A stretch of DNA of 64,000 nt, from positions 3,743,496 to 3,807,495 of the forward strand of contig CBDEGF010000004.1 in assembly GCA_965237685.1 (NCBI GenBank), in the 5' to 3' direction. This document shows, piece after piece, positions 7,185 through 42,072 of the stretch. The notes under the pieces are model-generated. The model was given only the letters and a program-made list of their open reading frames with translations, was not told the DNA's origin and ran no database searches. The position numbers were made by a program, and so were the translations under genes. Origin of the DNA: Candidatus Marinacidobacterales bacterium. GTDB taxonomy: Bacteria; Acidobacteriota; Vicinamibacteria; Marinacidobacterales; SMYC01. Each line of letters starts with the position of its first letter. Position 1 is the first letter of the stretch.

Positions 7185-8054
7185 ATGAGTGGGGTTCGGT
7201 ATCGCGGCCGGGAAGTGAGCGAAGCGGATATCGAGTTCATCCGCGAGCTCATCGCCGCCCATCCCAAGGAAAGCCGTCGTGCGCTGTCGTTGAAGCTGTG
7301 CGCGGCGTGGCAATGGGTGCAAGCGAACGGCGCACCGTGCGACGCGATCGCTCGAGGGCTTCTGCTCAGCCTTCACCGCTCGTCTCGAATCGAGCTTCCG
7401 GAGCCGCGGTACCGGTTCTCGAGGCCGTATCACCGCAACAAACCGAGTGTGGTGGAGCTCGACTCGACACCGCTCCGGGCACGTCTGTGCGCGCTTCAGC
7501 CTCTGGAGTTTCGTCAGGTGCGGCGCACGGAACAGGAGGCTGTGTTCAACGGGCTCATCGAGACCCACCACTACCTGGGCTACACGCAGCCGGTGGGGAC
7601 GCACCTGAAGTACCTGGTTTTGAGCCAAGGGCGTCCGGTGGCCTGCGTGTCGTTCTCGTCAGCACCACGCCACTTGGAGGCTCGGGACCGTTTCATCGGG
7701 TGGTCTGCTGAGGCCCGGCGGCGCAACATCCGCTTCATCGCCTATAACCCGCGGTTTTTGATCCTTCCGTGGATCTTCGTTCCACATTTGGCGTCGCACA
7801 TTCTGGGCCGCATGGTGCGAAAGCTTCCGATGGAGTGGGAACAGAGCTACGGCAATCCGGTGTTTTTTGTAGAGACCTTCGTGGACGTGTCTCGGTATCG
7901 AGGGACGTGCTACCGGGCGGCGAACTGGGTTGTTTTGGGCATGACGAAGGGTCTGGGCAAGGACAGCCGGTCGAAGCGTCCGAACCGCTCGCTGAAGCAA
8001 GTGCTGGGCTATCCGCTGACGAAGCGCTTTCGAGAAAAGCTCTCGAGCTATTAG
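7185..8054 (+). CDS. DUF4338-like passenger protein inside the IS66 element
   Basis: 289 aa. The C-terminal motif ETFVDVSRYRGTCYRAANWVVLGMTKGLGKD recalls the DUF4338 family. Sits between tnpB and tnpC, where canonical IS66 has no gene. Confidence 0.5.
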   Translation: MSGVRYRGREVSEADIEFIRELIAAHPKESRRALSLKLCAAWQWVQANGAPCDAIARGLLLSLHRSSRIELPEPRYRFSRPYHRNKPSVVELDSTPLRARLCALQPLEFRQVRRTEQEAVFNGLIETHHYLGYTQPVGTHLKYLVLSQGRPVACVSFSSAPRHLEARDRFIGWSAEARRRNIRFIAYNPRFLILPWIFVPHLASHILGRMVRKLPMEWEQSYGNPVFFVETFVDVSRYRGTCYRAANWVVLGMTKGLGKDSRSKRPNRSLKQVLGYPLTKRFREKLSSY

Positions 8055-8055
8055 A

Positions 8056-9720
8056 ATGCGGACTCCACCAACGATCGAGCTAACGATGGAAGATCTGGAA
8101 ACCCTGCTCAAGCGTGCGAAGGCTTCCTTAGCGGAAGAGGACTACGAGAAGCTGGAGCTTTTGCGCAACGCCTATTTGACGCTGACGGATTTCATCGAAG
8201 ACGACCGGATGACGATTCGGAAACTGCGAGAGATGTTGTTCGGTCGAAGCACGGAAAAGACGAGCAAGGTTGTTGCCGAAGTGGAGGGCGAAACTCCACA
8301 GCTTCGCGGCGGGGAGAGTGGCGGGCCGAGCGAGGGTGACGAGCCAGACAAGAGCACCAAGCGGCGCAAGGCCAAGGGTCATGGTCGCAACGGCGCGGAC
8401 GCCTACCAGGGCGCGGATCGGATCCGTATCGCTCGCGATGAGCTGAAGCACGGGCAGCGGTGCCCGGAGTGCGAGACGGGCAAGGTCTATGCGAAGAAGC
8501 CGAAGGTGCTCGTGCGCATCACCGGCGAGCCTCCTCTGAGAGCGACGCTGTATGAGCTCGAGCGATTCCGATGCAACCTCTGCGGCGAGACCTTCACAGC
8601 GAGCGCCCCTGATGGCGTGGGTGAGGAGAAGTACGATGCCACCTCCGCGGCCATGATTGGACTGCTGAGGTACGGGAGCGGGCTTCCCTTCAATCGCCTG
8701 GAAGGCCTGCAGGGGTCCATGGGCATTCCCCTGCCGGCCTCGACCCAGTGGGATATCTCCACGACGCTGCCATTGAGCTCGAGCCCGTCTTCGAGGAGCT
8801 GATCCGGCAAGCGGCCGCTGGCGATGTGTTCTACAACGATGACACGGGTGTGAAGGTTCTTTCCCTCATGAACGTGCCGCCCGAGCCAGAGGATGGCGTC
8901 GCCGCCGAGCGCACCGGGCTCTTTACCTCAGGGATCGTTTCCACGAAGCAGGGGCGGAGGATCGCGCTTTTCTTCACCGGGCGCAAGCACGCAGGCGAGA
9001 ACCTCAGCCACGTTACTCGCTCAACGGGCTTCGGAGCTCCCTCCGCCGATCCAGATGTGCGATGCGCTTTCACGCAATCTTCCCAAGGAGTTCGAAACCA
9101 TCCTCTCAAACTGCCTTACGCATGGCCGCAGGTACTTCGTGAAGGTTGTGGAGAACTTCCCGCAAGAGTGCCTCTACGTGATTGAGGTGCTTGCCGAAGT
9201 GTACCGAATCGATGCTCTCGCTCGCGAGCGAGGGCTCTCGCCCGAGAAACGATTGCGCTTGCATCAGGCCGAGAGCGAACCGATTCTCAAAGAGCTCAAG
9301 GCTTGGTTCAAGGCGCAGCTTGCCGACAAGAAGGTGGAACCGAACTCAGGTCTTGGCGAGGCCATCCGTTACATGCTCAAACACTGGGACAAGCTCACCC
9401 GATTCCTGAGGGTGCCAGGCGCACCCCTCGACAATAATCTGCGCGAACGCGCATTGAAGAAAGCCATTCTGCATCGGAAGAACTCCCTGTTCTACAAGAC
9501 GAAAAACGGCGCCCGGGTCGGAGACATCTTCCTCAGCTTCATCCACACCGCCGAGCTCAACGGCGTCGATCCCTTCCACTACCTCACCGAGCTCATTCGA
9601 CATCGCGGCGAAATCCACGCGAACCCCGCGGACTGGCTGCCCTGGAACTACCGAGACACACTCGCTCGCGGCTCCAAAAACGAGCAGACGCACGCACGTC
9701 CCAAAGAAATCAGACCCTAA
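8056..9720 (+). pseudogene. tnpC: IS66 TnpC transposase, split over three frames
   Basis: ORF 8056..8802 has the N-terminal zinc finger (CPECETGKVY...FRCNLCGETF). ORF 8748..9185 has the DDE core (FYNDDTGVKVL). ORF 8893..9720 is the C-terminus (NNLRERALKKAILHRKNSLFYKT...). Two frameshifts, near 8760 and 9010. Confidence 0.75.
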
Positions 9721-9742
9721 CGCACGCTTGCCGGAAACTCAC

Positions 9743-12191
9743 GGTCCTCGCGTCTCTCAACCACCCGAACATTGCCGGGATCCATGGGCTCGAGCAGCAC
9801 GACTCAACGCACTTCCTCGTCCTGGAACTCGTTCCCGGAGAGACGCTGGCAGAGCGAATCTCAAGAGGCCCCATACCCGTCGAAGAAACTCTCCAGATCG
9901 CCAGGCAGATCGCCGAGGCCCTGGAGGAGGCCCACGAGAAAGGCATCGTCCATCGGGACCTCAAGCCTGCCAACATCAAACTCACCCCGGACGACAAGGT
10001 CAAGGTCCTGGACTTCGGACTCGCCAAGGCATTCGTTGAGGAGATGCCCGAGGCGGATAGCTCGATGTCTCCCACGCTAACGAGAGATGCGACTCGGATG
10101 GGCGTGATTCTGGGGACGGCGGCGTACATGAGCCCCGAACAGGCGAAGGGAAAGCGGGTCGACAAGCGGACCGACATTTTCGCCTTTGGCGCCGTGCTGT
10201 ACGAGATGTTGACCGGAAAGAAAGCGTTCGCCGGGGAAGACGTCTCGGACGTATTGGCTTCGATCATGAAGCTGGAGCCCGATTGGAAGGCGGTTCCTTC
10301 TGATCTCGATCCGCGGATCCGGAACCTCTTGCGCCGGTGTCTCAGGAAGGATCGCAAGAACCGTCGCCAGTCCATCGGGGACGTCCGTGTGGAGATTCAG
10401 GAAATCGTAGCCGAGCCGAGCGAGTCGCCTGCAGTGTCTCGGCCGGCGGGTCAGCACCGGGAGATCTTCATCGGTGTAGCGGCGCTGATCCTAGGCATGC
10501 TGATCGCCGGCGTCGTTGTCTGGCGTGCGGCCGATCCCGCCGCGCTATCTCCCCTCCGCTTCACGATCACGACATCAGTTGAACTGGCCAGGGCCGGGGG
10601 ACCACTGCTGGCTTTGTCTGCTGACGGCAGGACCCTAGTCTATTCTGCTGTCCAGCGAGGCGCGCGGCAACTCTACTTGCGTCCAAGGGATCAGTTTGAG
10701 GCCTCGCCAATAGCCGGTACGGAAGGCGCGAGGATGCCGTTCCTGTCACCGGACGGACAGTGGATCGGCTTTAGCACGGCCAATGTTCTTAAGAAGGTTC
10801 TGATCGCCGGTGGTACACCCACTACGCTGTGTGCGTGCGGTTCCGGCCGATCAGCCGCTTGGGGACCGGATGACACGTCTTTTTCACTGACGCGTCGTCA
10901 AGGCTGTCAGCCATCTCTGCCGCTGGCGGCACTCCCCAACCAGTGACAACGCTAGAAGACGACGAGAGTCTCCATCGCGGCGTCAACGTTCTCCCGAACG
11001 GGCGTGCGATCCTGTTTGCCGCGCTGTCTGGCGGCGGACGCGAAACAGCCCGAATCGTAGCCCAGTCACTGGACACCGGCGAACGACGAGTGCTTCTCGA
11101 CGGGAGCCACCCACGCTATGCTCCAACAGGTCACCTCCTTTTCGCACGCAGCAACGCCCTGTGGGCCGTCCCCTTCGATGTCGATCGTCTTGCGGTGAGC
11201 GGAGAGCCGATTCCCGTAGTTGAGGGTGTCCGGCAGGAACCGGTCGGGGCGGTTCAGTACGAGATCGCTCAAGATGGCACCCTCGCGTACGCACCAAGCC
11301 TGGAGGACGCGATACCCCAGGATTCGCTCCTGTGGGTTGACCGCGAGGGTGAAGTCACACCCCTGACGGCGGATCAAGGTGTGTATCGAAGCCTGAGCGT
11401 CTCTCCCAATGGGGGAGAGATTGCTCTGCAGATTACAGGCGAGGATGGCAGCGACAACATCTGGCTGCTTGATATTGAGCGCGGTACACTCGTTCCTCAG
11501 ACGACCGGAAACACGCTCAACCGGAATCCGGTGTGGGCACCGGACGGAACCAGGATAGCGCTCAACGCCATGGCCGGACCTGGGGGCTATGACCTTTACT
11601 GGACTGCCCTGAGCGGCGGCGGGCTAGAGAACTTCCTCGAGCGAGACGGTACGCAGAGGCCTTCTTCCTGGTCCCGCGACGGGAGCTTGCTCGCCTTCGA
11701 GCATCTCGCTCCAGAGACGGGGAGCGATGTCTGGATCTTCTCCGTTTGCGGAGGGTACGGCATCGCCGTTCCTTGAGAACCGCGCGGCCGAATCGGGTGC
11801 AGTCTTCTCGCCGGGCGGTCACTGGATGGCCTATGTGTCGGATGATTCGGGTCGGGAAGAGATCTACGTCACATCCTTTCCCAACCCTGGCCGTCGAACA
11901 CGCGTATCCACGGCTGGGGGACACAGGCCACGCTGGGCAGCGAACGGCACGGAATTGTTCTATATGACCGAGAACGACGAAGTCATGGTGGTGTCTATTC
12001 TGACTGCGGAGTCGTTGAGAGTTGGGCAGCCGGAACGTCTTTTTCAACTGCCGGGCTTGGTGGATTACGATGCGCATCCCGATGGCAGGCGGTTCGTGGT
12101 GGTCCAGCGCGGCGCCTCCCCGGAGACCACCCAAATCAACGTTGTCCAGAACTGGTTCGAAGAGCTCAAGCGTCTCGTCCCCACCAACTAG
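9743..12191 (+). pseudogene. Ser/Thr protein kinase (N-terminally truncated at the IS66 right end) fused to a TolB-like beta-propeller; two internal frameshifts
   Basis: From 9735: LASLNHPNIAGIHG...HRDLKPANIKL..DFGLAK...YMSPEQ is a Hanks kinase lacking subdomains I-III. A TM segment and propeller follow in ORFs 10044..10946, 10943..11776 and 11727..12191, with the C-terminus NWFEELKRLVPTN. Confidence 0.65.
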
Positions 12192-12193
12192 CG

Positions 12194-12481
12194 TTGCTCC
12201 CCTCCATCAAGCCCATCCGCCCGGTCGAAGAGAAACACCCCTTCGACGACCCAGAGTGGATCTTCGAGCTGAAGCACGATGGCTTCCGGGCTCTCGCCTA
12301 CATCGAGAACGGAGAGTGCCGCCTCGTGTCCCGAAACGACTACACCTTCCCTCACTGGCCGGGTCTCGGGCGATGGCTCGCAGAAAACCTAGGCGCTGAA
12401 AGCGCCATCCTCGACGGCGAGCTGGTCTGTCTCGATGACGGGGGCCGCTCGCAGTTCTACGACCTCTACTCTCGAAGGTAG
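12194..12481 (+). pseudogene. ATP-dependent DNA ligase N-terminal fragment (adenylation motif I KHDG)
   Basis: FDDPEWIFELKHDGFRALAYIENGECRLVSRNDYTF is the ligase KxDG motif region. Stops after 95 aa. A probable C-terminal remnant (GEIKVRNPSYSQKEGRKELFEARW) lies at about 13430-13535. Confidence 0.55.
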
Positions 12482-12558
12482 GAGGCCGCGGCCAAGCTCA
12501 AGGCGGGGACGGAACAATCGCCAAGCAGCGATTCCTTCGGTATCCTGGATCTAGCTTT

Positions 12559-13077
12559 ATGCTCACCGAATCAGAGGAAGCCCGCCTCGAACTCATTCTC
12601 AAGGCGTACGAAGCTGAGTACAAGGAACACGTTGACAACTGGCGCCTTATCGAAACCAAGTCGCAGGGCACAGCCGCTGTCGCAGGAGTCTTTCTCGCGG
12701 CCGCATTCGCGTACGTGCGCACATTGGAGCCGGAAGACATGTCTCGTCTCGAGACCTACGCGCTCATTGGCACCGTCGCACTGCTTGTGGCAACAGTAGT
12801 AAGAGCTATCGCCGCATTACGCGTTACTCAGGTTGAGGCACCCCCTTCTGGTGACGAAATCGATAGAGTAGTCACGGCTTACAACGAACTTGATGAAAAA
12901 CAACGAGGTGAACGCCTGGACGACCTCTACGGGACGCAGCTCAAAGTTTGGAAGCATGCAAACGAGACACTCCATGAGGCGAACTCGAAGAAAGCGGAGC
13001 TGCTCGCCGACGCACAGACTTTGCTCACGATTGCAGCAATAGCTGCCGCGCTCCTCACGGTTCTCATAGTCTTGTAG
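12559..13077 (+). CDS. hypothetical 172-aa protein with three predicted TM helices and a central coiled coil; possibly SLATT-like
   Basis: Local GC drops to about 52%. TM segments AAVAGVFLAAAFAYV, YALIGTVALLVATVVRAIAAL and LLTIAAIAAALLTVLIVL. No recognisable catalytic motif. Confidence 0.45.
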   Translation: MLTESEEARLELILKAYEAEYKEHVDNWRLIETKSQGTAAVAGVFLAAAFAYVRTLEPEDMSRLETYALIGTVALLVATVVRAIAALRVTQVEAPPSGDEIDRVVTAYNELDEKQRGERLDDLYGTQLKVWKHANETLHEANSKKAELLADAQTLLTIAAIAAALLTVLIVL

Positions 13078-13305
13078 GTGAAGGATACAAGAGTGAAAGA
13101 AGACTTGAGACCGATTTGCATGCAGCCTCACTGCAAGAATCCGGCCGATCAGCGAGATCTCTTTTGTGAAGAACACACTCTATTGGCGATGCGAGAAGCA
13201 GAGGACGAAAGGGAAAACTATGAAGAAGAAGACGAAGAAGAAGATACCGAAGAAGAAGCGGCCGAAGAAACCGGGCAAGAAGAAGAGACGGACGAAAATC
13301 GTTAA
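13078..13305 (+). CDS. small (75 aa) protein with a Cx4C..Cx2H zinc-ribbon-like motif and a strongly acidic E/D tail
   Basis: GTG immediately after the upstream stop (TAGGTG). ICMQPHCKNPADQRDLFCEEH followed by EDERENYEEEDEEEDTEEEAAEETGQEEETDE. Same low-GC block. Confidence 0.35.
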   Translation: MKDTRVKEDLRPICMQPHCKNPADQRDLFCEEHTLLAMREAEDERENYEEEDEEEDTEEEAAEETGQEEETDENR

Positions 13306-13694
13306 GAAGAAGCGACGCTAGGACCGTCATGCTCTGGCCTGGATGAACGTTCAGGCTGTTCCTTGCCCCAGACGACCAGGACGCGATCGAGTCGCTCGCC
13401 CTCGTCGGCTGTCCACTCGAGTCTCGTAGGGGAGATCAAGGTCCGGAATCCGAGCTACAGCCAGAAGGAAGGCCGCAAGGAGCTGTTCGAGGCGCGGTGG
13501 AACAAGGCCCCTGAGCAGCGGAAGTTGTCTTCATAGCACGGCGACCGAAGCCGCCGTAATTCAGGCGCTAAGGCCCGCGATTGGCGGGTGAAGACACCTC
13601 CGCCACATGGGATTCTACCCCCTCCTGCTCGTCGAGGCCCCGCGGCGCTAGCCAGCCTGTCCGGCTACAATCCTTTCACGCTCGGAGGCCGTTC

Positions 13695-14115
13695 ATGTCC
13701 CTCAGCCCCGGTCAGAAACTCTCCCAGTACGAGATTGGCGAGCTCCTCGGCAAAGGTGGTATAGGCGAGGTGTATCGGGCGAAGGATACGAAGCTCGGGC
13801 GGGATGTGGCGATCAAAGTCCTGCCTGACCTCTTCGCGGACGATCCTGAACGCCTGGCCCGCTTCCAGCGTGAAGCCAAAGTCCTCGCCTCGCTGAACCA
13901 CCCCAACATCGCGGCCATCTACGGGCTCGAAGAGAGCGGCGACACGCGGGCGCTGGAGCTGGTCGAAGGGCCGACGCTGGCTGACCGGATCGCGCTGGGG
14001 GCAATCCCGCTGGACGAAGCCCTCCCGATCGCCAGGCAGATCGCCGAAGCCCTCGAAGCCGCGCATGAGCAGGGCATCATCCACCGTGACCTCAAGCCGG
14101 CTAACGTGAAGGTCA
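13695..14115 (+). pseudogene. Ser/Thr protein kinase N-terminal fragment (paralog of the 9743 kinase), truncated after subdomain VIb
   Basis: MSLSPGQKLSQYEIGELLGKGGIGEVYRAKDTKLGRDVAIKVL...HRDLKPANVKV, then the frame decays. GxGxxG and VAIK are present; DFG and APE are absent. Confidence 0.7.
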
Positions 14116-14125
14116 GAGACACGCG

Positions 14126-14449
14126 ACACCCTCCGCACCGTCCCTCTTGCTTCCCGAATAGCTGGTGCCGGTGTGTCCGGTAGCTCGGGAGCTTTCCGAG
14201 GTCCGTGCGCTTCGGCACGTCCTCTCGGTGGTTAACGTCGTAGAACATCTTGAACGCTTCGCGCAGCCGTGTCTTGACCAGTGTGGCCGCGAGCTCGGAT
14301 AGGTCGATCCCTACCCATTGCCGCCCGAGAGTTTCGGCGCTCACACAGGCGGTAGCGCAGCCGGCGAACGGGTCGAGTACAACGTCGCCAGCGTTCGAAC
14401 TAGCCTTGATGATCCGGTCCAGAAGCGCGAGGGGCTTCTGGGTCGGGTA
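14126..14449 (-). pseudogene. C-terminal fragment of an N6/N4 DNA methyltransferase (motif I region)
   Basis: YPTQKPLALLDRIIKASSNAGDVVLDPFAGCATACVSAETLGRQWVGIDL matches the conserved HPTQKP...DPF.GSGTT block of beta-class amino-MTases. It abuts the kinase truncation point on the opposite strand. Confidence 0.55.
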
Positions 14450-14514
14450 GCCAACACGCTCTCTGCCTCCGTCACCGCCGTCACGAGGTCTGGTCTCGGC
14501 TCTGGCCATCGACG

Positions 14515-15109
14515 GTGACGGGAAGGCGAAGCTACCGGAACACTCACGCTCTGTTTCGCGACCTTTCGAAGCGGATGAGTTTCGGACGTCTTCCCCTGAT
14601 CGTCACGGATGGATTCGAATTCTACCAGAAGGTCATCCGTCGCTTCTTCGGGCCAGCGTGTCTTTACGGCCAGGTCCTCAAGACGCGCAGGAACGATCGT
14701 ATCATCAAGGTCGAACGGAGAGCGCTGCACGGAGCCGCGTGGCGATTCGAAGACGCGCTTCAATAACTCCGAGGACTCCTCAACATTGAACACATCGTTC
14801 ATCGAGCGGTTAAATCTGACCATCCGGCAAAGCTCGGCATACCTTTCGAGACGAACGCTTTCCCACGCTCGCTCGACGGAGAGGCTCGATGAGCACTTGG
14901 AGTTGCTCCGTTGCTATTACAACTTCGTCCGACCGCACGGAACTCTGAAGTTCGGACGTGAGATCCGAACTCCGGCCATGCAAGCCGGTCTGACCACGCG
15001 ACGGCTCACCTTTCGAGACATCTTCTTGGCGACGACGATTCCTTTGTGGTCGCGGATCGAGGTTTTCCTGCTCACTGGGGGCGCGCAACCCGGTCTCTTC
15101 CGCACCTGA
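14515..15109 (+). pseudogene. IS1-family transposase (InsB-like) fragment in two frames
   Basis: PLIVTDGFEFYQK and IERLNLTIRQSSAYLSRRTLSHARSTERLDEHLELLRCYYNFVRPH resemble IS1 InsB. The ~70-bp terminal sequence at 15050-15120 recurs at 34297-34340 and 34600-34690. Confidence 0.55.
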
Positions 15110-18745: not shown

Positions 18746-20188
18746 TTCGCGGTCCCCGTCCTGTGCCAAAACTCGGCCCTTTTGAAATAGGCCATAAATC
18801 AGCAACTTAGTGTCTGTGTTTGCGACCGGGCCAAGGGCCGTGGGCTTTACAATCGTCTTGGGCGGGCGGGTCGTCACCATGCAGATGACCACCTAGTCGA
18901 GAGCGAATATCGAAGCGTGTTCCTGAAGCTGTTTCCACGCTACGCCGGTCGAGCCCGCCGAGGGGCTACCGTCGCCGGCGACCATCTACGCGGCACGGCA
19001 GTAGTAGTTGAGAATGCCCCCAAGTCGCTCTCGCGACACGATGGGGCCAGTGTCATTCGCGCTTGCCGGCAGAGGTGTGAGGAGCTCGTTGCCGAGACCT
19101 TGGTGGTTCCGTTCTGTGTGATAGTGCACTACGTATTCGGTTACCGCTGTGCGCAGGTGTCGCTCACTGAGAGGTACGAAGCGGTCGAGACACTCTCGAC
19201 GTATGGAGAGAACGAATCTTTCCGCATATGCGTTCAGATTCGGACTATTAGCGGGAAGGCGAAGGGGCTTCACGCCTGAATCTCTCAACAGCCCACGTAC
19301 CGCCTCGGTGAATAGCGGGTCCCGGTCGTGGATGAGGTATCGCTTGCCAAGGAGGAAACCATCCCACATTGTCAGTGAGGTTTCTTGCCACCTGCTTCAT
19401 CCACTCCCCGTTGGGGTCCGACGTTATCCCACCGATGCACACGCAGCGAGTGGCGATATCGATGACAAACAGGACATGGTAGCGGACGAGCCCGAACGGG
19501 TTCACAACCTCGACGGTGAACAGGTCTGTCGCAGCGATGGCGCCCCAATGAGCCTTGATGAAGGTGCTCCACGACATGCTCTTGCCCCGCTCCGGGGCAG
19601 GCGCGATACCGTGCTCGGCGAGGATCCTCTTGATAGTGTTGCGTCCGAGTTCATGTCCTAGGTTCTTGAGTGCGCCTCGCAGGCGCGTATATCCCCACGT
19701 CGGGTTCTCCTGCGCCACGCGCACAATGAGCTCACGGATGTCCTTCGCCGTCGGAGGTCGGCCTGGGCTCCGGTTCTTGCTGCCATCGTACTTGGCTGCG
19801 ATGAGGCAGCGGTACCAACGCAGAAGCGTAGCGGGTGTGGCAACGGACGCAATCTGGGCCAGCGCCTCGCGGCCCAAAGCCTGGGCCTTGACCGCGAGCC
19901 TGCGCCGGTCGTCGTCCGAGAGACTGAGACGCTTGCCCCGAAGCCCGGCTCGGAGCACACGGTTCTCCTCTTGCTGGTAGTCGATCACATCCTGCTGCTG
20001 GCGGTTGACCCAGCCAGCTAGAACGAGCAGTAGGAATTGCACGTGGTACGTCATCATGGATCTGAAGATAACACCCCCGGGCCAGACGATTGTAAAGCCT
20101 ACGGCCCTTGGCACCGGCGCAAACACAGACACTAAGCTGCTGATTTATGGCCTATTTCAAAAGGGCCGAGTTTTGGCACAGGACGGGG
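18746..20188 (-). mobile_element. IS481-family element, copy 1 (1.44 kb), with ~100-bp imperfect terminal inverted repeats
   Basis: Ends CCGTCCTGTGCCAAAACTCGGCCCTTTTGAAATAGGCCATAAATCAGCARCTTAGTGTCTGTGTTTGCG... at 18746 and its reverse complement at 20188. The transposase 18986..20132 carries a frameshift near 19370. Confidence 0.75.
18986..20132 (-). pseudogene. IS481-family transposase (HTH + rve integrase core), frameshifted
   Basis: ORF 19248..20132 (MSVFAP...NLTD) and ORF 18986..19369 ([17 protein letters not shown]...[12 protein letters not shown]...ERNHQGLGN). Together they equal the full-length protein seen at 51505. Confidence 0.7.
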
Positions 20189-27372: not shown

Positions 27373-27483
27373 TATGGCACGGGAACTGCTAAGGGGTGGA
27401 GGCGGGAGTAGGCTGCCAGCGGTCGGGTAGAAGCTCGTGGATGCGTTTTTGTGGCCATCCGTCGGCGAGCTTGCGGAGCACGT
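27373..27483 (-). other. 111-bp fragment identical to the 3' end of the IS66 tnpC at 39400-39525, inverted, wedged between the IS481-family end and an IS21 remnant
   Basis: Direct sequence comparison of 27373-27483 with the reverse complement of 39410-39525. Confidence 0.7.
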
Positions 27484-28597
27484 CAGTGAGGTACGGGAAT
27501 CAACCGGACGTACGAAGAGCTGGCGACGCATTACGGTGCGGTTGTGGTCCCGGCTCGGGTGTTCAAGCCGAAAGACAAAGCGAAGGTGGAGTCGGCAGTG
27601 CAGGTGGCGCAGCGCTGGATCCTGGCGGTGCTTCGTCATCGCACGTTCTTCAGCCTGGCGGAACTGAACGAAGCCATCTGGGAGAAGTTAGAGGTCCTGA
27701 ATGCGCGTCCGATGCAGAAGCTCGGTGTGAGTCGGCGGGAGTTGTACGAAAGGCTAGACCGGCCCGTACTGAAACCGCTACCGCAGGAGAGCTACGAGTT
27801 ATCGACGTGGAAGCGGTGCAGAGTGAACATCGACTACCACGTGGAGGTGGAGAACAACTTGTACAGCGTTCCCTATCAGCTCATTCACGAGAAAGTCGAG
27901 GCACGGGTGACGGCCTCGGTGGTGGAGGTCCTGTTCAAGGGAAAGCGCGTCGCGTCGCATCCCCGCAAGAAAGGAAAGGGGCACTACTCCACGAACCCGG
28001 AGCATATGCCACGTTCGCATCGGGAGCACCTGGAGTGGACGCCGTCGCGGCTGCTCCACTGGGCGGAGCAGTCAGGTCGCGCCACGGGAAGGCTGGTTGC
28101 GGGGATTCTAGAGAGTCGGCCTCACCCGGAACAGGGATTTCGCTCTTGCCTGGGAGTCATGCGACTAGGCAGCCGCTGGGGCAGTGAGCGTCTCGAGGCC
28201 GCTTGCGCACGAGCGGAAGCTTTGAGCTCTTACAGCTATCGCACGGTGAAAAACATTCTCTCGGCTGGTCTGGATCGTGTGGTGCTCGAATCGGACGCCG
28301 AAGCGCTGCGCCAAAGGCATCTGACAACGCCGATGCATGAGCGAGCGAGGGACCACAGCGTCGATGCGATAAAAACGGGTGAAACCGCCAAACCCGGGGT
28401 ACCAGACGATGCGGCGCCAAAACGACGCGCGAGAATGCCTCAGGAAGCGTCTTCTCGAGCCAGGCCATACCCCAGCAACCCCCGAAACCAGCCCCACATC
28501 GCCCGGGGTTCGGCCGCGGCAGGTCGCTGCCTACGGGAGCGGGAAGGTCGCTTCGCGTCTTTCCTTACGCCCGCTCCCTCCGGCACCGACCTGCCGC
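27484..28597 (+). mobile_element. internally deleted IS21 copy: istA middle joined at a GCG microhomology to the IS21 right-end region; istA 3' end and all of istB are missing
   Basis: 27484 onward is identical to 40441 onward of the complete IS21. At about 28300, ...[11 protein letters not shown] runs straight into the sequence found after istB in the complete copy (42040...). Continues after the ISKra4-like insertion at 30074..30243. Confidence 0.7.
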
Positions 28598-30073
28598 GGG
28601 CGCAACCTTTTCGTGATCTTGATCATTTTTCTACTAGAAATGTTCTCTTGACATAAAAGGAAAAATGAGGTGTCCTTCACAATCCTAAATAAAGAAAACG
28701 GTCGCAGCTAAGCGGCCGATGGAGGGACACCTCAATGAAAAGCAGTATCACGCGGGAGGAGTTTAGTAAAGAAGTAAGTCGTCTATCCGAGGAGTTCGCG
28801 GAGCAAGTGTGGCAGGCGGTCGTGGAAGCGGAAGCTGATGTCGAACGGTGTGACGAGTGGATGCGGGTCAAGGGCAGCGAATACCTGCGTGAGGTACTGG
28901 GCAAGGCGCTCAGCCAACGCTCGGAACGACTCGGTGTGTCAGGCGCATGCGAATGCGGCGCGTCGATGGAGTTTCGACAACATCGAGCGTTCCGGGTGCA
29001 CACGGTACTGGCGGGTCGGGATGTGGAGCTGAGTGTGGTTTACGCTCAGTGCTGTGAGTGTCGTCAAGGCAAGTATCCGCTGCTGGAAGAGATGCGGGTG
29101 GACCAGGAGGGATTCACGCAAGCCTTACAAGAGTTGTCGCTGTTGGCAGGAGTGATCGAACCCTACCGCTCGGCGGGCGAGCAATTGCTGCGAAAGTTCA
29201 CCGGGGTGGTCGTGAGCTCCGAGAAGATTCAAAGCTTGGTAGGCGCCGATGGGAAAAAGGCGGAGGGTTTTTCGAAAGAGCCTGCGAACGAGGTGGAAGC
29301 TGGAACGGGCAGACGCCATAAGGGACCGCTGTACATAGGGATAGACGGCGGGATGGTATTCGTGGACGGCCGCTGGCAGGAAGTCAAGCTAGGCTGCCTT
29401 TATACCGAGCAAGGGCGTGTGCAGAGCAAGCTCGGACGCGGAGAGTTGACCGAACGACAGGTCGTAGGGGTTCGAGGTAGCCCCGAAGCACTCGGCGAGG
29501 TTTTGTGGCCTCGCTCTTGCTCAATGGGGGCGGAGTCTCGCAAGGTCGTCATCCTGGGTGACGGTGCGCCGTGGATTTGGAATCTTGCGGAGGAGCTGTT
29601 CACCGATCGAGTCGAGATCCTTGATTGGTATCACGCCGACGAGAATATCAGCCCTGTGGCACGGGTGGTTTTCGGCGAAGGCACCGACGAAGCCGCACAG
29701 TGGCGCAAATCGCAACTCGACCGTCTATACGAAGACGCCGTGGATGAGGTGATCGAGGGTTTGCGGTTTCTGAAAAAGCGTCATCGTTCCAAAGACGAAG
29801 AGATCGACAAGCTCACCGGCTACCTCGAGAGAAACGGGCATCGAATGAAATACAGAACGTTTCGACAAAGCGGCTACTACATCGGCAGCGGTGCCGTGGA
29901 AAGTGCCGTGAGCCACGTTATGCAACAAAGGATGAAGCGAGTCGGGATGAGATGGCACGCCGCTGGGGCCGATGCAATGCTCGCACTGCGCTGTGTCTTC
30001 CGAAGCACGGGCGCCTGGGATTCGTTCTGGAACTATCGAAAACAGGTCGCATGAACGGAAGTCGATTGCGCCC
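28598..30073 (+). mobile_element. ISKra4-like (ISNCY-family) IS, 1476 bp, with 10-bp inverted repeats GGGCGCAAYC and 8-bp target duplication CCTGCCGC
   Basis: Target duplication at 28590-28597 and 30074-30081. Left end gggcgcaacc; right end gattgcgccc. Lower GC. Inserted into the IS21 right-end region. Confidence 0.7.
28735..30054 (+). CDS. ISKra4-family transposase
   Basis: 439 aa. ILDWYHADENI and C-terminal GYYIGSGAVESAVSHVMQQRMKRVGMRWHAAGADAMLALRCVFRSTGAWDSFW are hallmarks of ISKra4-group transposases. Confidence 0.7.
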   Translation: MKSSITREEFSKEVSRLSEEFAEQVWQAVVEAEADVERCDEWMRVKGSEYLREVLGKALSQRSERLGVSGACECGASMEFRQHRAFRVHTVLAGRDVELSVVYAQCCECRQGKYPLLEEMRVDQEGFTQALQELSLLAGVIEPYRSAGEQLLRKFTGVVVSSEKIQSLVGADGKKAEGFSKEPANEVEAGTGRRHKGPLYIGIDGGMVFVDGRWQEVKLGCLYTEQGRVQSKLGRGELTERQVVGVRGSPEALGEVLWPRSCSMGAESRKVVILGDGAPWIWNLAEELFTDRVEILDWYHADENISPVARVVFGEGTDEAAQWRKSQLDRLYEDAVDEVIEGLRFLKKRHRSKDEEIDKLTGYLERNGHRMKYRTFRQSGYYIGSGAVESAVSHVMQQRMKRVGMRWHAAGADAMLALRCVFRSTGAWDSFWNYRKQVA

Positions 30074-31952: not shown

Positions 31953-32940
31953 CCGTCCTGTGCCAAAACTCGGCCCTTTTGAAATAGGCCATAAATCAGC
32001 AGCTTAGTGTCTGTGTTTGCGCCGGGGCCAAGGGCCGTAGGCTTTACAATCGTCTGGCCCGAGGGTGTTATCTTCAGATCCATGATGACGTACCACGTGC
32101 AATTCCTACTGCTCGTTCTAGCTGGCTGGGTCAACCGCCAGCAGCAGGATGTGATCGACTACCAGCAAGAGGAGAACCGTGTGCTCCGAGCCGGGCTTCG
32201 GGGCAAGCGTCTCAGTCTCTCGGACGACGAGCGGCGCAGGCTCGCCGTCAAGGCCCAGGCTTTGGGCCGCGAGGCGCTGGCCCAGATTGCGTCCGTTGCC
32301 ACACCCGCTACGCTTCTGCGCTGGTACCGCCACCTCATCGCAGCCAAGTACGATGGCAGCAAGAACCGGAGTCCAGGCCGACCTCCGACGGCGAAGGACA
32401 TCCGTGAGCTCATTGTGCGCGTGGCGCGGGAGAACCCGACGTGGGGATATACGCGCCTGCGAGGCGCACTCAAGAACCTAGGACATGAACTCGGACGCAA
32501 CACTATCAAGAGGATCCTCGCCGAGCACGGTATCGCTCCTGCGCCGGAGCGGGGCAGGAGCATGTCGTGGAGCACCTTCATCAAGGCTCATTGGGGCGCC
32601 ATCGCTGCGACAGACCTGTTCACCGTCGAGGTTGTGAACCCGTTCGGGCTCGTCCGCTACCATGTCCTGTTTGTCATCGATATCGCCACTCGCTGCGTGT
32701 GCATCGGTGGGATAACGTCGGACCCCAACGGGGAGTGGATGAAGCAGGTGGCAAGAAACCTCACTGACATGTGGGATGGTTTCCTCCTTGGCAAGCGATA
32801 CCTCATCCACGACCGGGACCCGCTATTCACCGAGGCGGTACGTGGGCTGTTGAGAGATTCAGGCGTGAAGCCCCTTCGCCTTCCCGCTAATAGTCCGAAT
32901 CTGAACGCATATGCGGAAAGATTCGTTCTCTCCATACGTG
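31953..32940 (+). mobile_element. IS481-family element, copy 3, 3'-truncated at about 32940 where an IS256-family remnant begins
   Basis: Left 100-bp end plus transposase ORF 32007..33014, identical to copy 4 up to ...[18 protein letters not shown]. Confidence 0.7.
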
Positions 32941-33016
32941 GAGAGTGTCTCGACCGCTTCGTACCTCTCATTCTTCCCTTCCAACAGAGGCTGCGACGAT
33001 ACCCATCCAACTGATG

Positions 33017-34120
33017 GCGTACCGGTACTATGAGAACGCTCCGGCAACGACGAAGGAGAAGGGACGACGCAACGGGTATGAGTCGCATCGGGTCCTCACG
33101 GGCGAGGGAGCGGTAACGGTGCAAGTGCCGCAGGTACGAGAAACAGAGAAGGTGTTTCAGTCAAAGATTCTCGACGCCTACGTGAGCCGGACCGAGAAAC
33201 TCGATGAACTGATCGCGCGGATGTACGTCCACGGGATGTCGACGCGTGACATTGAGGCGACGTTCGCGGACGTGCTGAGCGGCACGGGTGTCTCGAAGTC
33301 GGTGGTGAGCCGGGTCACACGGTGTCTGTCGGAGGATTTCGAGGCGTTTCGAAAACGGGATCTCTCGAACGAGAAGCTGTTGTATCTCGAGCTCGACGGC
33401 ACGTACCTGCGCTACCACCAAGGAGCGGAGAGGAAAGAGCCCATCCTCGTTGCGACCGGCTATCGCGCTGATGGGACGCGAGTTCTTCTTCATATCGGTG
33501 TCGGCAACCGAGAATCCTACGAGAACTGGAAGGGGTTCTTGCAGGAGATGGTGGCCCGAGGAATGAGGGAGCCGTTGCTCATCGTGACGGACGGGAATCC
33601 TGGAGTGCTCAAAGCGATCGCAGAGGTCTTCCCTCGAAGCCTCAAGCAACGTTGCCAGAAGCACCGCCTCGAGAACATCCTGGGCAAGGCTCCGAAGGAA
33701 GTGCGCGACGAACTCAAGGCGGCCATCCTTGAGTCGTTCCATGCGAACAGCTACGAGCAAGGGCTGAAGAAGGGTCGGGAGGTGATCGCTCGGTACCGTC
33801 AACGATTCCCGAGCGCGATGAAGTGCATGGAAGAGACCCTCGAAGCGTGTCTTCAGGCGCTACGCCTTCCTGCGGCGCATCACAAAAGGCTTCGCACGTC
33901 GAATCTACTTGAGCGCACGTTCGGAGAGCACAAACGTCGCACAAAGGTCATTCCTCACTTCTTCACCGAGGAGGCCGCGATGAAACTCTCGTTCGCTGTG
34001 CTCTTGGCCGTCGCAAACAAATGGCGCGGCGTGAGGATGGATGTCTTCGCCGCTAGGAAAGTCGAGGAGCTTCGCAACGAGCTTCTCCCGCAAGGCACGT
34101 CGGAGGAATCAGCAGCTTAA
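33017..34120 (+). CDS. IS256-family (Mutator-like) transposase, N-terminally truncated
   Basis: RNGYESHRVLTGEGAVTVQVPQVRE, DGTYLRY, LLIVTDGNPGVLKAI and CQKHRLENIL are IS256 transposase motifs. About 70 N-terminal residues are missing. Confidence 0.7.
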   Translation, partial: AYRYYENAPATTKEKGRRNGYESHRVLTGEGAVTVQVPQVRETEKVFQSKILDAYVSRTEKLDELIARMYVHGMSTRDIEATFADVLSGTGVSKSVVSRVTRCLSEDFEAFRKRDLSNEKLLYLELDGTYLRYHQGAERKEPILVATGYRADGTRVLLHIGVGNRESYENWKGFLQEMVARGMREPLLIVTDGNPGVLKAIAEVFPRSLKQRCQKHRLENILGKAPKEVRDELKAAILESFHANSYEQGLKKGREVIARYRQRFPSAMKCMEETLEACLQALRLPAAHHKRLRTSNLLERTFGEHKRRTKVIPHFFTEEAAMKLSFAVLLAVANKWRGVRMDVFAARKVEELRNELLPQGTSEESAA

Positions 34121-39762: not shown

Positions 39763-41320
39763 ATGGCAGCTAAGAGGTTATCGATGAGAAAAATACGAGA
39801 GGTTCTAAGGTTAAAGTACGAGCTGGGTTTTACTCACCGCACGATCGCAAAGGCACTTCGCGTGGCGGTTGGAACGGTGAGTGAGTACCTGGCCAAGGCG
39901 AAGAAGGGTGGTCTGAGCTGGCCGCTCCCGGAGGAGCTGAGCGACGGGGAGCTGGAGGCAGGGCTGTTTCCGCCGCCGGGCTCGTCTGGCGCACGGCCGG
40001 GTCTGGACTATGCCCACATCCACGAGGAGCTGAGGCGTCACCGAGAGCTGACGTTGCTGCAGCTGTGGGTGGAGTACGCGGAGAATAAGCCGGGAGCGTA
40101 CGGCTACAGCCGTTATTGCGAGCTGTACGGTCAGTGGAAGAAGAAGCTGAACCCGACGATGCGTCAACGGCATCGAGCAGGCGAGAAGACATTCGTCGAT
40201 TTTTCGGGGGAAGAAGCCTCACATCGTCGATCCGAAAACGGGAGAGCTCGTCGAAATGGAACTGTTCGTCGGGACGTTGGGCGCGAGCAGTTACACCTAC
40301 GTCGAAGCGACACTGAACCAGTCGCTGGAATCGTGGGCGAAGGCCCATAAGGGGATGTCGGATTACTTCGGTGGCAGTACGGAGATCTGGGTTCCGGACA
40401 ACTTGAAGAGCGGCGTGGATTTGGTGGACCGTTACGAGCCAGGGATCAACCGGACGTACGAAGAGCTGGCGACGCATTACGGTGCGGTTGTGGTCCCGGC
40501 TCGGGTGTTCAAGCCGAAAGACAAAGCGAAGGTGGAGTCGGCAGTGCAGGTGGCGCAGCGCTGGATCCTGGCGGTGCTTCGTCATCGCACGTTCTTCAGC
40601 CTGGCGGAACTGAACGAAGCCATCTGGGAGAAGTTAGAGGTCCTGAATGCGCGTCCGATGCAGAAGCTCGGTGTGAGTCGGCGGGAGTTGTACGAAAGGC
40701 TAGACCGGCCCGTACTGAAACCGCTACCGCAGGAGAGCTACGAGTTATCGACGTGGAAGCGGTGCAGAGTGAACATCGACTACCACGTGGAGGTGGAGAA
40801 CAACTTGTACAGCGTTCCCTATCAGCTCATTCACGAGAAAGTCGAGGCACGGGTGACGGCCTCGGTGGTGGAGGTCCTGTTCAAGGGAAAGCGCGTCGCG
40901 TCGCATCCCCGCAAGAAAGGAAAGGGGCACTACTCCACGAACCCGGAGCATATGCCACGTTCGCATCGGGAGCACCTGGAGTGGACGCCGTCGCGGCTGC
41001 TCCACTGGGCGGAGCAGTCAGGTCGCGCCACGGGAAGGCTGGTTGCGGGGATTCTAGAGAGTCGGCCTCACCCGGAGCAGGGATTTCGCTCTTGCCTGGG
41101 AGTCATGCGACTAGGCAGCCGCTGGGGCAGTGAGCGTCTCGAGGCCGCTTGCGCACGAGCGGAAGCTTTGAGCTCTTACAGCTATCGCACGGTGAAAAAC
41201 ATTCTCTCGGCTGGTCTGGATCGTGTGGTGCTCGAATCGGACGCCGAAGCGAAACCGCGAGAGGAGCACGAGAACATCCGAGGCGCGGATCACTACGAAG
41301 GAGGAGAGTCCCGATGCTGA
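39763..41320 (+). pseudogene. istA: IS21 IstA transposase, +1 frameshift in a G-run at about 40213
   Basis: ORF 39763..40350 is the HTH N-terminus. ORF 40256..41320 is the DDE core. tcgggggaagaag has one G too many relative to the frame that restores the DDE-core frame (...FSGKKPHIVDPKTGELVEMELFVGTLG). Confidence 0.75.
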
Positions 41321-42072
41321 CACCCGGAACGATAGAAAAGATGAACGCCATGAAGTTGTTCGGCTTGGTGTCCGCGTTCGAAACCCAGTTGAGCTCGAGC
41401 GAATACAAGGAGCTGAGCTTCGAGGAACGTGTGGGACTCCTGGTCGATGCCGAGTGGACCGCCCGCGAACAGCGTAAGCTTTCTCGACGACTGCGAGCGG
41501 CAAAGCTCCGCTATCCGGCATGTTTGGAGAACGTGAACTTCCAAGCGCCTCGAGGCTTAAACCGCGAACAGATCTTGAGCCTGGGCAACTGCCGCTTTGT
41601 CGGTGAGCGCCATAACCTGCTCATCACCGGCCCGACGGGGATTGGCAAATCGTTCTTGGCTTGCGCCTTCGTGGAGCGGGCCTGTCGTCGCCGCTTCACC
41701 GGATGCTACGTGCGAGCACCGCGCTTGCTCCACGAGCTCGCGGTCGCTCGTGGTGATGGTTCCTACGCCCGGCTTTTGACGAAACTCGCCAAGCTGGACT
41801 TACTGGCTATCGATGATTGGCTGCTTCACCCGCTGAAAGAATCGGAGAGACGGGATCTAATGGAGGTCATCGAAGACCGCGCCGAGCGTGGCTCCACACT
41901 CATCGCGACCCAGATTCCGCTCAAGCAGTGGCACGAAGCGATTGGCGACCCAAACCAGGCAGACGCTATCTGCGATCGCATTCTCCACAGCGCGCACCGC
42001 ATCACTCTCAAAGGAGCTTCTCTGAGAAAGACCAAGGCTGCGCCAAAGGCATCTGACAACGCCGATGCATGA
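41314..42072 (+). CDS. istB: IS21 IstB ATP-binding helper
   Basis: ATGCTGA overlap with the istA stop. Walker A LLITGPTGIGKSFLACA, Walker B DLLAIDDW. Confidence 0.85.
   Translation: MLTPGTIEKMNAMKLFGLVSAFETQLSSSEYKELSFEERVGLLVDAEWTAREQRKLSRRLRAAKLRYPACLENVNFQAPRGLNREQILSLGNCRFVGERHNLLITGPTGIGKSFLACAFVERACRRRFTGCYVRAPRLLHELAVARGDGSYARLLTKLAKLDLLAIDDWLLHPLKESERRDLMEVIEDRAERGSTLIATQIPLKQWHEAIGDPNQADAICDRILHSAHRITLKGASLRKTKAAPKASDNADA

Follow-up and report, generated by a model that had tools for sequence, protein, structure and literature searches.

What is a low-GC segment with two small open reading frames (ORFs) doing in the middle of a gene that resembles an ATP-dependent DNA ligase, where did it come from, and what kind of system do its two genes form? 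The question is raised by a 64,000-nucleotide stretch of DNA from a “Candidatus Marinacidobacterales” bacterium (contig CBDEGF010000004.1, positions 3,743,496 to 3,807,495; referred to here as the window). In it, ORF1 encodes a small membrane protein and ORF2, immediately downstream, a tiny protein with a CCCH zinc knuckle. Pairs of the ORF1-ORF2 type constitute a conserved two-gene module. The interpretation toward which we lean, with confidence only slightly better than even, is that the locus holds a horizontally acquired, partly decayed copy of an effector pair that is related to PycTM and SLATT proteins, is independent of a cyclase, and is probably conflict related. Taken by itself, a conflict or defense role for the pair is a proposal to which we give a little less than even weight.

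To judge from synteny with three related loci (L069, L070, and L071), from sharp breakpoints in homology, and from a shift in GC content, a foreign piece of about 943 bp (positions 12490 to 13432) has replaced the middle, about 234 bp, of the ligase-like gene. In blastn comparisons, positions 12195 to 12487 of the window align with positions 737 to 1023 of L069 at 82% DNA identity, and positions 13434 to 13500 align at 84% identity with L069 positions 1258 to 1324, the 3′ end of the gene, where L070 also matches. Positions 12141 to 12488 align with L071 at 85% identity, and homology to L071 ends at the same left breakpoint; the left block of homology to the three loci (82 to 85% DNA identity) extends up to position 12487 or 12488. 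Between the two blocks lie 946 bp in the window versus 234 bp in L069 (1023 to 1258). The replaced part amounts to about 79 codons, and the window has lost motifs III to IV along with most of motif V. When a reconstructed relative of 196 amino acids (aa) was used as a tblastn query, only residues 1 to 95 and 175 to 196 were found in the window, the latter at 82% identity; residues 96 to 174 were absent. Farther downstream, positions 13716 to 14115 correspond to the start of the L069 kinase gene (71% DNA identity), and this synteny indicates that the two ligase remnants are parts of a single locus. The original prediction, made from the sequence of this stretch, had proposed that a foreign pair replaced the middle of a ligase gene, and the synteny, the breakpoints, and the base composition all agree with that proposal.

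The GC content of the insert is 54.3%, compared with 61.8% and 63.8% in its two flanks, and among sliding windows of equal length across the 64 kb it ranks at about the 1st percentile; the lowest local value, 49%, lies over the GAA run of the insert. The dip reported earlier is thus real and coincides with the insert as defined by synteny, but the value over the insert is 54% rather than the 52% first given. An insertion sequence (IS) fragment was considered as the source of the dip and was rejected, as the insert has no transposase similarity and is filled by its two ORFs. At the ends of the insert, no terminal inverted repeats, target-site duplication, promoter, terminator, or Rfam match was found above chance.

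The 5′ remnant of the ligase-like gene (12194 to 12487; forward strand, as are the other features described below unless stated otherwise) comprises residues 1 to 95, including motif I (KHDG). Its 95-aa ORF (12194 to 12481) closes with a TAG at 12479 to 12481, which is an AAG-to-TAG change within sequence that is still homologous; the breakpoint follows a few bases downstream. The assignment of this fragment to the N terminus of a ligase was correct, as it matches PF01068 (E value of 8.7e-9; 35.8 bits versus a cutoff of 26.2) and, as its best NCBIfam match, TIGR02779, the ligase domain of nonhomologous end joining (NHEJ; 3.5e-18). The 3′ remnant (13434 to 13536) reads (W)IKVRNPSYSQKEGRKELFEARW... 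and runs from the end of motif V to the stop codon; the corresponding 57-aa ORF (13363 to 13536) has GEIKVRNPSYSQKEGRKELFEARW... as its C-terminal end. Nothing significant was found for this remnant in Pfam, NCBIfam, PADLOC, or PHROGs. Its earlier reading as a ligase-like C terminus is confirmed by the nucleotide match to the 3′ end of the L069 gene described above.

The closest relatives of the ligase fragment come from a Vicinamibacteria metagenome-assembled genome (MAG; P0003, 78% identity) and from two metagenome contigs, and in these a Ser/Thr kinase with a Tricorn/PD40 propeller is encoded directly 3′ of the ligase-like gene. The relatives end right after motif V, without an oligonucleotide-binding (OB)-fold domain, and they are also frameshifted. 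The flanking gene is like a LigD-type ATP-dependent DNA ligase in that the fragment has motif I (KxDG, here KHDG) and an adenylation-domain profile match, with PF01068 above its gathering threshold and a match to the NHEJ domain. However, even the “intact” relatives would measure only about 200 to 225 aa, lack an OB fold, and are frameshifted, and complete motifs III, IIIa, IV, and V and an OB-fold domain were not found in the ligase-like gene of the window. The family could represent genes that are widely in decay or else an unusual kind of mini-ligase that is coupled to kinases. Among the 120 homologues listed of 365 found, all are 167 aa or shorter. The three closest relatives are frameshifted, and their reconstructed intact form of about 200 to 225 aa would consist of the nucleotidyltransferase domain only. 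Often, a gene for a Ser/Thr kinase with a Tricorn/PD40 propeller lies 2 to 40 nt away; relatives lie at positions 655 to 1330 of L069, at 2786 to 3418 of L071, and at 4001 to 4500 of L078, L079, and L080.

No ligase-like sequence accompanies the gene pair in the other family loci. Conversely, no cassettes were found inside truncated ligase-like genes elsewhere, as the three loci concerned showed only truncation or frameshift. The position of the cassette within the remains of a ligase-like gene is an accident of local genome decay.

What, then, does the insert encode? ORF1 (12559 to 13077) appears to be intact and encodes a PycTM-like, all-helical protein of 172 aa with three transmembrane (TM) segments. 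A word-indexed homology search recovered only ORF1 itself, and the profile version of the search recovered 13 proteins. An exhaustive phmmer search against 1.84 billion cluster representatives (clusters at 50% identity) yielded 668 clusters at an E value of ≤1e-3, with 339 of them at ≤1e-10; the matches run from end to end at 27 to 43% identity. Nearly all of these proteins are 170 to 180 aa long. Longer members have only disordered extensions or miscalled starts, with no informative domain fusions. In an alignment of 76 members, K34, G43, and K145 are invariant, and the motifs WRxLExKAQGTxAIAGIFLAA, PPxG, DQxxxW, and NxxKA...AQ are conserved. Apart from A35S, the ORF1 of the window keeps the conserved residues of the family. 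The public protein collection contains ORF1 as well as the ligase fragment.

An AlphaFold2 model of ORF1 that was built with this alignment (predicted local distance difference test score [pLDDT] of 96; predicted template modeling score [pTM] of 0.86) has helices at residues 4 to 55, 63 to 87, 98 to 109, and 113 to 171, and hydropathy places hydrophobic segments at about residues 38 to 56, 66 to 92, and 148 to 172, with long helices in between. According to the model, the protein consists of a TM hairpin and a C-terminal TM helix, and the N-terminal helix together with the helices of residues 98 to 147 would form a soluble stalk. The three TM segments and the N-terminal helix anticipated in the original prediction are therefore recovered by both hydropathy and AlphaFold2, but a three-helix stalk fits better than the coiled coil that had been proposed. 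Lys34 and Lys145 stand about four residues before TM1 and TM3, which would put them at the cytoplasmic interface of the membrane, and this interface could be the place where a ligand or partner acts.

The second gene represents a conserved companion of this protein. A degenerate DNA motif derived from the conserved block of the ORF1 family retrieved 68 loci in GTDB species genomes, 40 of which contain a true family gene. In most loci, a small downstream ORF begins M..C...GC...A....(N)YC..H, at a distance of −12 to about +47 nt, and gene callers have called this small downstream gene in other contigs as well. The pattern C-x(2-9)-C-x3-[AVTI]-x(3-7)-[YF]C-x2-H, with which we scanned for the partner, occurs 33 times in 490 kb times six frames, always in family loci, and was not found in any of 28 control loci that lack the family gene. 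In 29 of the 40 loci, the motif is directly downstream of the family gene and on the same strand, so homologues of the pair do co-occur in other genomes, as the neighborhood check proposed with the original prediction was meant to find out.

Within the 64-kb window, the partner pattern has a single match, which is in ORF2. As read, ORF2 (13078 to 13305) encodes 75 aa from the GTG at 13078, with the zinc knuckle followed by an Asp/Glu-rich tail. The two ORFs are located where they were predicted, but the tight coupling through a TAGGTG stop-start overlap is less well founded, since the GTG at 13093, behind an AAGGA at 13081 to 13085, appears from the sequence to be the more likely start. The CCCH motif, CMQPHCKNPADQRDLFCEEH (13117 to 13176), is the signature of the partner gene and starts 39 nt past the stop codon of ORF1. 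Its spacing, C14-x4-C19-x10-C30-x2-H33, is exactly that noticed in the first reading (Cx4C-x10-Cx2H), and the four residues are invariant in an alignment of 22 partner sequences.

Direct scans of ORF2 against Pfam, NCBIfam, PADLOC, and PHROGs gave nothing usable, and the partner as a group has no PADLOC family, no Pfam or NCBIfam family, and no relatives in the PDB. Weak matches to C3H fingers of Pfam were seen with WRC (4 of 22 sequences, best E value of 4.8e-4), zf-C3Hc3H (4 of 22), and also CxC6. The partner shares with the WRC and zf-C3Hc3H fingers the CCCH spacing and the basic stretch that follows it. However, those are domains of eukaryotic or viral nuclear proteins, and the partner matches them well below threshold. 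No paper describing the pair turned up in the literature on PF18967/DUF5706 or on SLATT combined with a zinc ribbon that was searched. With no profile for the partner, no effector-family profile matched above threshold, and no describing paper found, the pairing appears to be new, in line with the original prediction, in which no described system with it was known.

PycTM and SLATT-type membrane effectors form the output arm of nucleotide-signaling defense systems such as Pycsar, the cyclic oligonucleotide-based antiphage signaling system (CBASS), and defense-associated reverse transcriptases (DRT). The original prediction had likened ORF1 to SLATT-type effectors, and we scanned each of the 76 aligned family members against PADLOC. 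The PycTM model PDLC02364 matched 70 of them (best E value of 7.1e-8), PDLC02363 matched 56 (1.6e-7), and PDLC02365 matched 26 (6.7e-4). The CBASS “2TM” effector model PDLC00691 was matched by 12 members (best, 4.1e-5) and the reverse transcriptase (RT)-associated SLATT model PDLC03795 by 4 (best, 0.0039), and single members match two further models. The resemblance thus holds at the level of the family, mainly toward PycTM and in few members toward the 2TM and RT-associated SLATT proteins, but the Pfam SLATT/DUF4231 family itself is undetectable, both for ORF1 at an E value of ≤1 and among the 25 most-matched families of the 76 members (E value of ≤0.05).

The PycTM profiles have 154 to 165 positions, and several family members match collinearly along almost the entire profile. 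For example, residues 28 to 171 of P0125 align with profile positions 18 to 153 of 160 (7e-8), and residues 29 to 171 of P0122 align with positions 21 to 153 of 154. Such near-full-length matches indicate that the similarity is wider than the TM hairpin. Precomputed Pfam annotation gives weak or faint, sub-threshold matches to PF18967 (PycTM) for several members, which are absent from our own Pfam scans. From these profile comparisons, we take the ORF1 family to be a distant homologue of PycTM and not a PycTM member.

In a different origin that was considered, the insert would be what is left of a phage cassette for lysis or superinfection exclusion, and ORF1 would be holin-like. Phage_holin_3_6 is matched by 8 of the 76 members (best E value of 4.4e-6), and the protein is small and has several TM segments. 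However, the holin matches cover only the TM hairpin, no endolysin or phage genes were found beside any locus, and none of the viral contigs or phage records searched (see below) has the pair. We consider this origin extremely unlikely.

Two papers (PMC12489823 and PMC11224242), which both cite Tal et al. 2021, describe PycTM as the effector of Pycsar, with membrane impairment as the result of its binding of cyclic CMP (cCMP). The ORF1 family is like PycTM (PF18967; PDLC02363, PDLC02364, and PDLC02365) in its size (about 155 to 175 aa), in being an all-helical membrane protein, and in being one gene of a two-gene operon. It differs in its partner, which in Pycsar is the cyclase PycC and here is a CCCH zinc-knuckle protein of about 45 to 110 aa, as well as in its matches below the Pfam threshold and in motifs of its own (KAQGT, PPxG, and NxxKA). 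No pyrimidine cyclase PycC was found beside ORF1 in the window or among the inspected or Pfam-annotated neighbors of related loci. With the SLATT/2TM effectors of CBASS and DRT, ORF1 shares a hairpin of two adjacent TM helices flanked by cytoplasmic helices; unlike them, it adds a third, C-terminal TM helix and is not associated with a nucleotide-generating enzyme or a reverse transcriptase. The combination of a small membrane protein with a tiny cotranslated partner in variable, mobile neighborhoods also recalls two-gene membrane-toxin modules of the type II-like toxin-antitoxin or abortive-infection kind, but neither ORF1 nor ORF2 matches any toxin-antitoxin family.

The tail of ORF2 had been described as a run of about 35 Glu/Asp residues and interpreted as a possible DNA mimic or antitoxin. 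The actual content is 23 Asp/Glu in 42 residues, for a net charge of −20, and this is an extreme outlier among 31 partners. Partner tails are mostly polybasic (e.g., RASSKRAVKKKAAKRKRAKKK..., net charge of +10 to +48) and contain a TM helix in three loci; mildly acidic tails are found in L052 (−11) and L050 (−4). In Pyrinomonadaceae, two loci have the partner gene twice in tandem downstream of the PycTM-like gene, both copies with TM-anchored tails (L018, 4416 to 4472 and 4714 to 4770; L057, 3556 to 3624 and 3867 to 3926). In the Pyrinomonadaceae partners of L024, L038, L044, L060, and L062, the polybasic tail gives way to a domain that is conserved, measures about 70 aa (PPIVISGGSVxIEFD...GNPNKKIRRVxI...), and has no sequence relative in the PDB; these five loci share synteny, with an upstream gene that we take, from reading its sequence, to be aat-like.

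One base further on than ORF2 runs a Lys-rich frame (13196 to 13321) that ends in KQRTKGKTMKKKTKKKIPKKKRPKKPGKKKRRTKIVKKKRR and a stop codon and is probably the ancestral tail. With a net charge of +27 over 48 aa, it is indistinguishable from the tails of Gemmatimonadota-type partners (+26 to +29). The GC content at third codon positions is 0.78 in the Lys frame and 0.36 in the Glu frame, compared with 0.66 to 0.89 in host genes. Similarly, the ratio of AAG to AAA is 17:4 in the Lys frame and 58:22 in the host, and that of GAA to GAG is 17:2 in the Glu frame versus 64:138 in the host. The change of frame is confined to the stretch between the His codon (13174 to 13176) and position 13222. By reading of the sequence, one A fewer in the A4 run at 13214 to 13217 would join the two frames into an 80-aa protein of typical design. 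As assembled, the window has no partner tail in frame with the zinc knuckle, the Lys-rich tail being one base out, and ORF2 is absent from the public protein collection in either frame.

Because homologous tails are basic and the Lys frame has host-like codon usage, the acidic tail is most likely a frameshifted Lys-rich tail, whether through real decay or through an assembly error. A toxin/immunity pair in which the acidic tail acts as a DNA mimic or antitoxin and neutralizes a membrane toxin is consequently a very unlikely description of the locus. The acidic ORF is uninterrupted as assembled, the two genes are tightly arranged, and the mildly acidic tails of L052 and L050 provide some precedent; however, the short tails among 30 homologous partners are almost all basic, others are TM anchored or replaced by a small domain, codon usage fits the +27 tail that lies one base on, and the ORF is uncalled in public annotation. 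A caution follows for similar loci, in that a polybasic tail can, when its GAA/AAG run is read with a frame error of one base, look like an “acidic DNA mimic.” The Lys-rich frame has near its beginning an ATG at 13220, and an AAGGG sequence that resembles a Shine-Dalgarno site is located 6 nt before it (13208 to 13321 for the whole stretch concerned). Even with the frameshift, the gene could thus in principle still yield a free-standing polybasic peptide of 33 aa, MKKKTKKKIPKKKRPKKPGKKKRRTKIVKKKRR.

If the pair is a cyclase-independent effector module, as we favor, the product of gene 1 would be an inner-membrane protein with three TM segments, and its cytoplasmic stalk would be formed by the long N-terminal helix together with those helices that separate TM2 from TM3. 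The product of gene 2, the tiny CCCH zinc-knuckle protein, would be translated right after gene 1 or overlapping with it. The module would work without a cyclase, with the zinc-knuckle protein as its regulatory or sensing subunit, and the basic or hydrophobic tail would tether this protein beside the stalk of the effector, either to the inner leaflet or to nucleic acid. As polybasic and TM tails interchange, what they have in common is probably that they retain the knuckle at the membrane, with binding to nucleic acid as the other option. When the partner is lost, titrated, or changed in conformation, e.g., by phage infection, the PycTM-like protein would oligomerize and impair the membrane, and the outcome would be abortive infection or toxin-like. 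In the copy found in the window, AAG (Lys) codons would be read as GAA (Glu) because of a 1-nt indel. Unless the indel is an artifact of the assembly, this copy has probably been crippled by it, with ORF1 left intact. A more far-reaching version of this scheme, which we regard as tentative and somewhat unlikely, is that the family represents a new and widespread immunity of the cyclase-independent PycTM/SLATT type, in which the CCCH protein, with a tail that binds the membrane or nucleic acid, senses infection directly and gates a pore-forming effector with three TM segments, with no second messenger.

Do the genomic settings of the family point to conflict or to ordinary physiology? Family loci were found in Gemmatimonadota, Pyrinomonadaceae and other Acidobacteriota, Phycisphaerae/Planctomycetota, Chloroflexota, Desulfobulbaceae, Clostridia, and others, and their spread across the phyla is patchy. 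Clustering of the neighbors in the 40 loci revealed no third gene that is shared beyond close relatives. From reading of their translations, the upstream genes presumably encode aconitase, acetyl coenzyme A carboxylase (biotin carboxylase with biotin carboxyl carrier protein), and threonine synthase; further upstream genes, which we likewise take from their translations to encode orotidine monophosphate (OMP) decarboxylase and large helicase-like proteins, complete a set in which all are unrelated to one another. In two further loci, precomputed Pfam annotation places a HigB toxin and a DEAD-box helicase downstream. One MAG has two copies (L042 and L062).

Several observations weigh against the reading as a conflict-related PycTM/SLATT-like pair. 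Many family loci lie among housekeeping genes, and the pair in Pyrinomonadaceae is syntenic and looks vertically inherited; given these two features, a physiological role fits as well as defense does. No copies of the pair were found in 2.9 million viral contigs (motif scan), in 50,697 phage records (tblastn), or in plasmids. ORF1 itself has no PADLOC, Pfam, or NCBIfam match at an E value of ≤1 and nothing usable in PHROGs, and the link to PycTM is therefore carried by its homologues and by sub-threshold Pfam matches. Fold and PDB searches with ORF1 returned generic helical bundles only, with no PycTM or SLATT structure for comparison. Furthermore, were the partner inhibitory, its frameshift next to an effector gene that is still intact should lead to toxicity. 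Finally, the data above show the replacement by foreign DNA, the membership of ORF1 in its family, the conserved pairing, the remote relation to PycTM, and the evidence on the reading frame; the defense function, the role of the partner, and the mechanism of activation are what we infer from them, and for the partner role this is purely so.

The same observations could be explained by a housekeeping or physiological membrane pair, with a role in envelope stress, membrane organization, or nucleoid-membrane tethering and with the partner as a small DNA- or lipid-binding adaptor. Beyond the core metabolic neighborhoods, the Pyrinomonadaceae synteny, and the absence from phages, plasmids, and viral contigs, such a role is consistent with weak matches of the polybasic tail to the histone H1-like HC2 and of the partner profile to a high-mobility-group (HMG) protein. 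However, the pair is patchy across phyla, its neighborhoods vary, and one MAG has it twice; in the window it forms a low-GC insert in an island rich in pseudogenes and IS elements, and the only detectable homology is to defense effectors (PycTM, 2TM effectors, and RT-associated SLATT). We consider the physiological alternative unlikely, and the reading as an acquired PycTM/SLATT-like effector pair remains the one that we prefer.

The surroundings of the insert are rich in pseudogenes and IS elements, and genome plasticity in the window is high. Upstream of the ligase remnant, a kinase/beta-propeller pseudogene (9732 to 12188) is missing the first 58 aa and is frameshifted twice, near positions 10875 and 11751. 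It has Pkinase and PD40 matches, the L069 kinase aligns with it by tblastn as three blocks in two frames, and its stop is 2 nt before the ligase remnant. A fragment of an IS66 transposase (8893 to 9720) adjoins this pseudogene. On the downstream side, a truncated Ser/Thr kinase gene (13695 to 14114; Pkinase, 1.1e-25) retains only its first 142 aa, with 75% amino acid identity to the corresponding part of the L069 kinase, and a DNA-methylase fragment on the minus strand (13919 to 14509) cuts it after these 142 codons. The two flanking Ser/Thr-kinase/beta-propeller genes are paralogous, and both are pseudogenes.

These lesions bear on a variant of the preferred reading in which the module is intact in the organism and the frameshift in ORF2 is an error of assembly or consensus, e.g., in the A4 run at 13214 to 13217. 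The sequence lies on a single contig of 4.03 Mb, as long-read assembly of MAGs typically gives; a partner of typical length (80 aa) is restored if a homopolymer is shortened by one base; and ORF1 is fully intact. However, the nearby damage, with two kinases truncated, the middle of the ligase-like gene lost, and fragments of IS elements and a methylase, goes beyond consensus error and indicates that real decay is common in the region. We regard an assembly error as possible, if somewhat doubtful.

Other features of the window are listed for completeness. A DruA-like ORF (7185 to 8054), with the Druantia DruA domain PF14236 (2.5e-29), is located 4 kb upstream. The window is rich in transposases (27396 to 28656, 40256 to 42072, 32007 to 34120, 19248 to 20132, and 14609 to 15109), among them two IS21-like units (with the Mu-transposase C domain and, in one, IstB), a Mutator-family transposase, and an IS1/rve_3 fragment. 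Two HTH_32 transposase ORFs that look nearly identical are present on opposite strands.

As the copy in the window is probably damaged, the value of the locus is as a pointer to its family. That family, with at least 668 clusters, couples a PycTM-like protein to a small zinc-knuckle protein, with nothing else conserved. If the pair is a defense or toxin module, it would show how an effector of this kind can be controlled without a cyclase, and it would add to the catalogue of defense systems a compact two-gene system of less than 0.8 kb.

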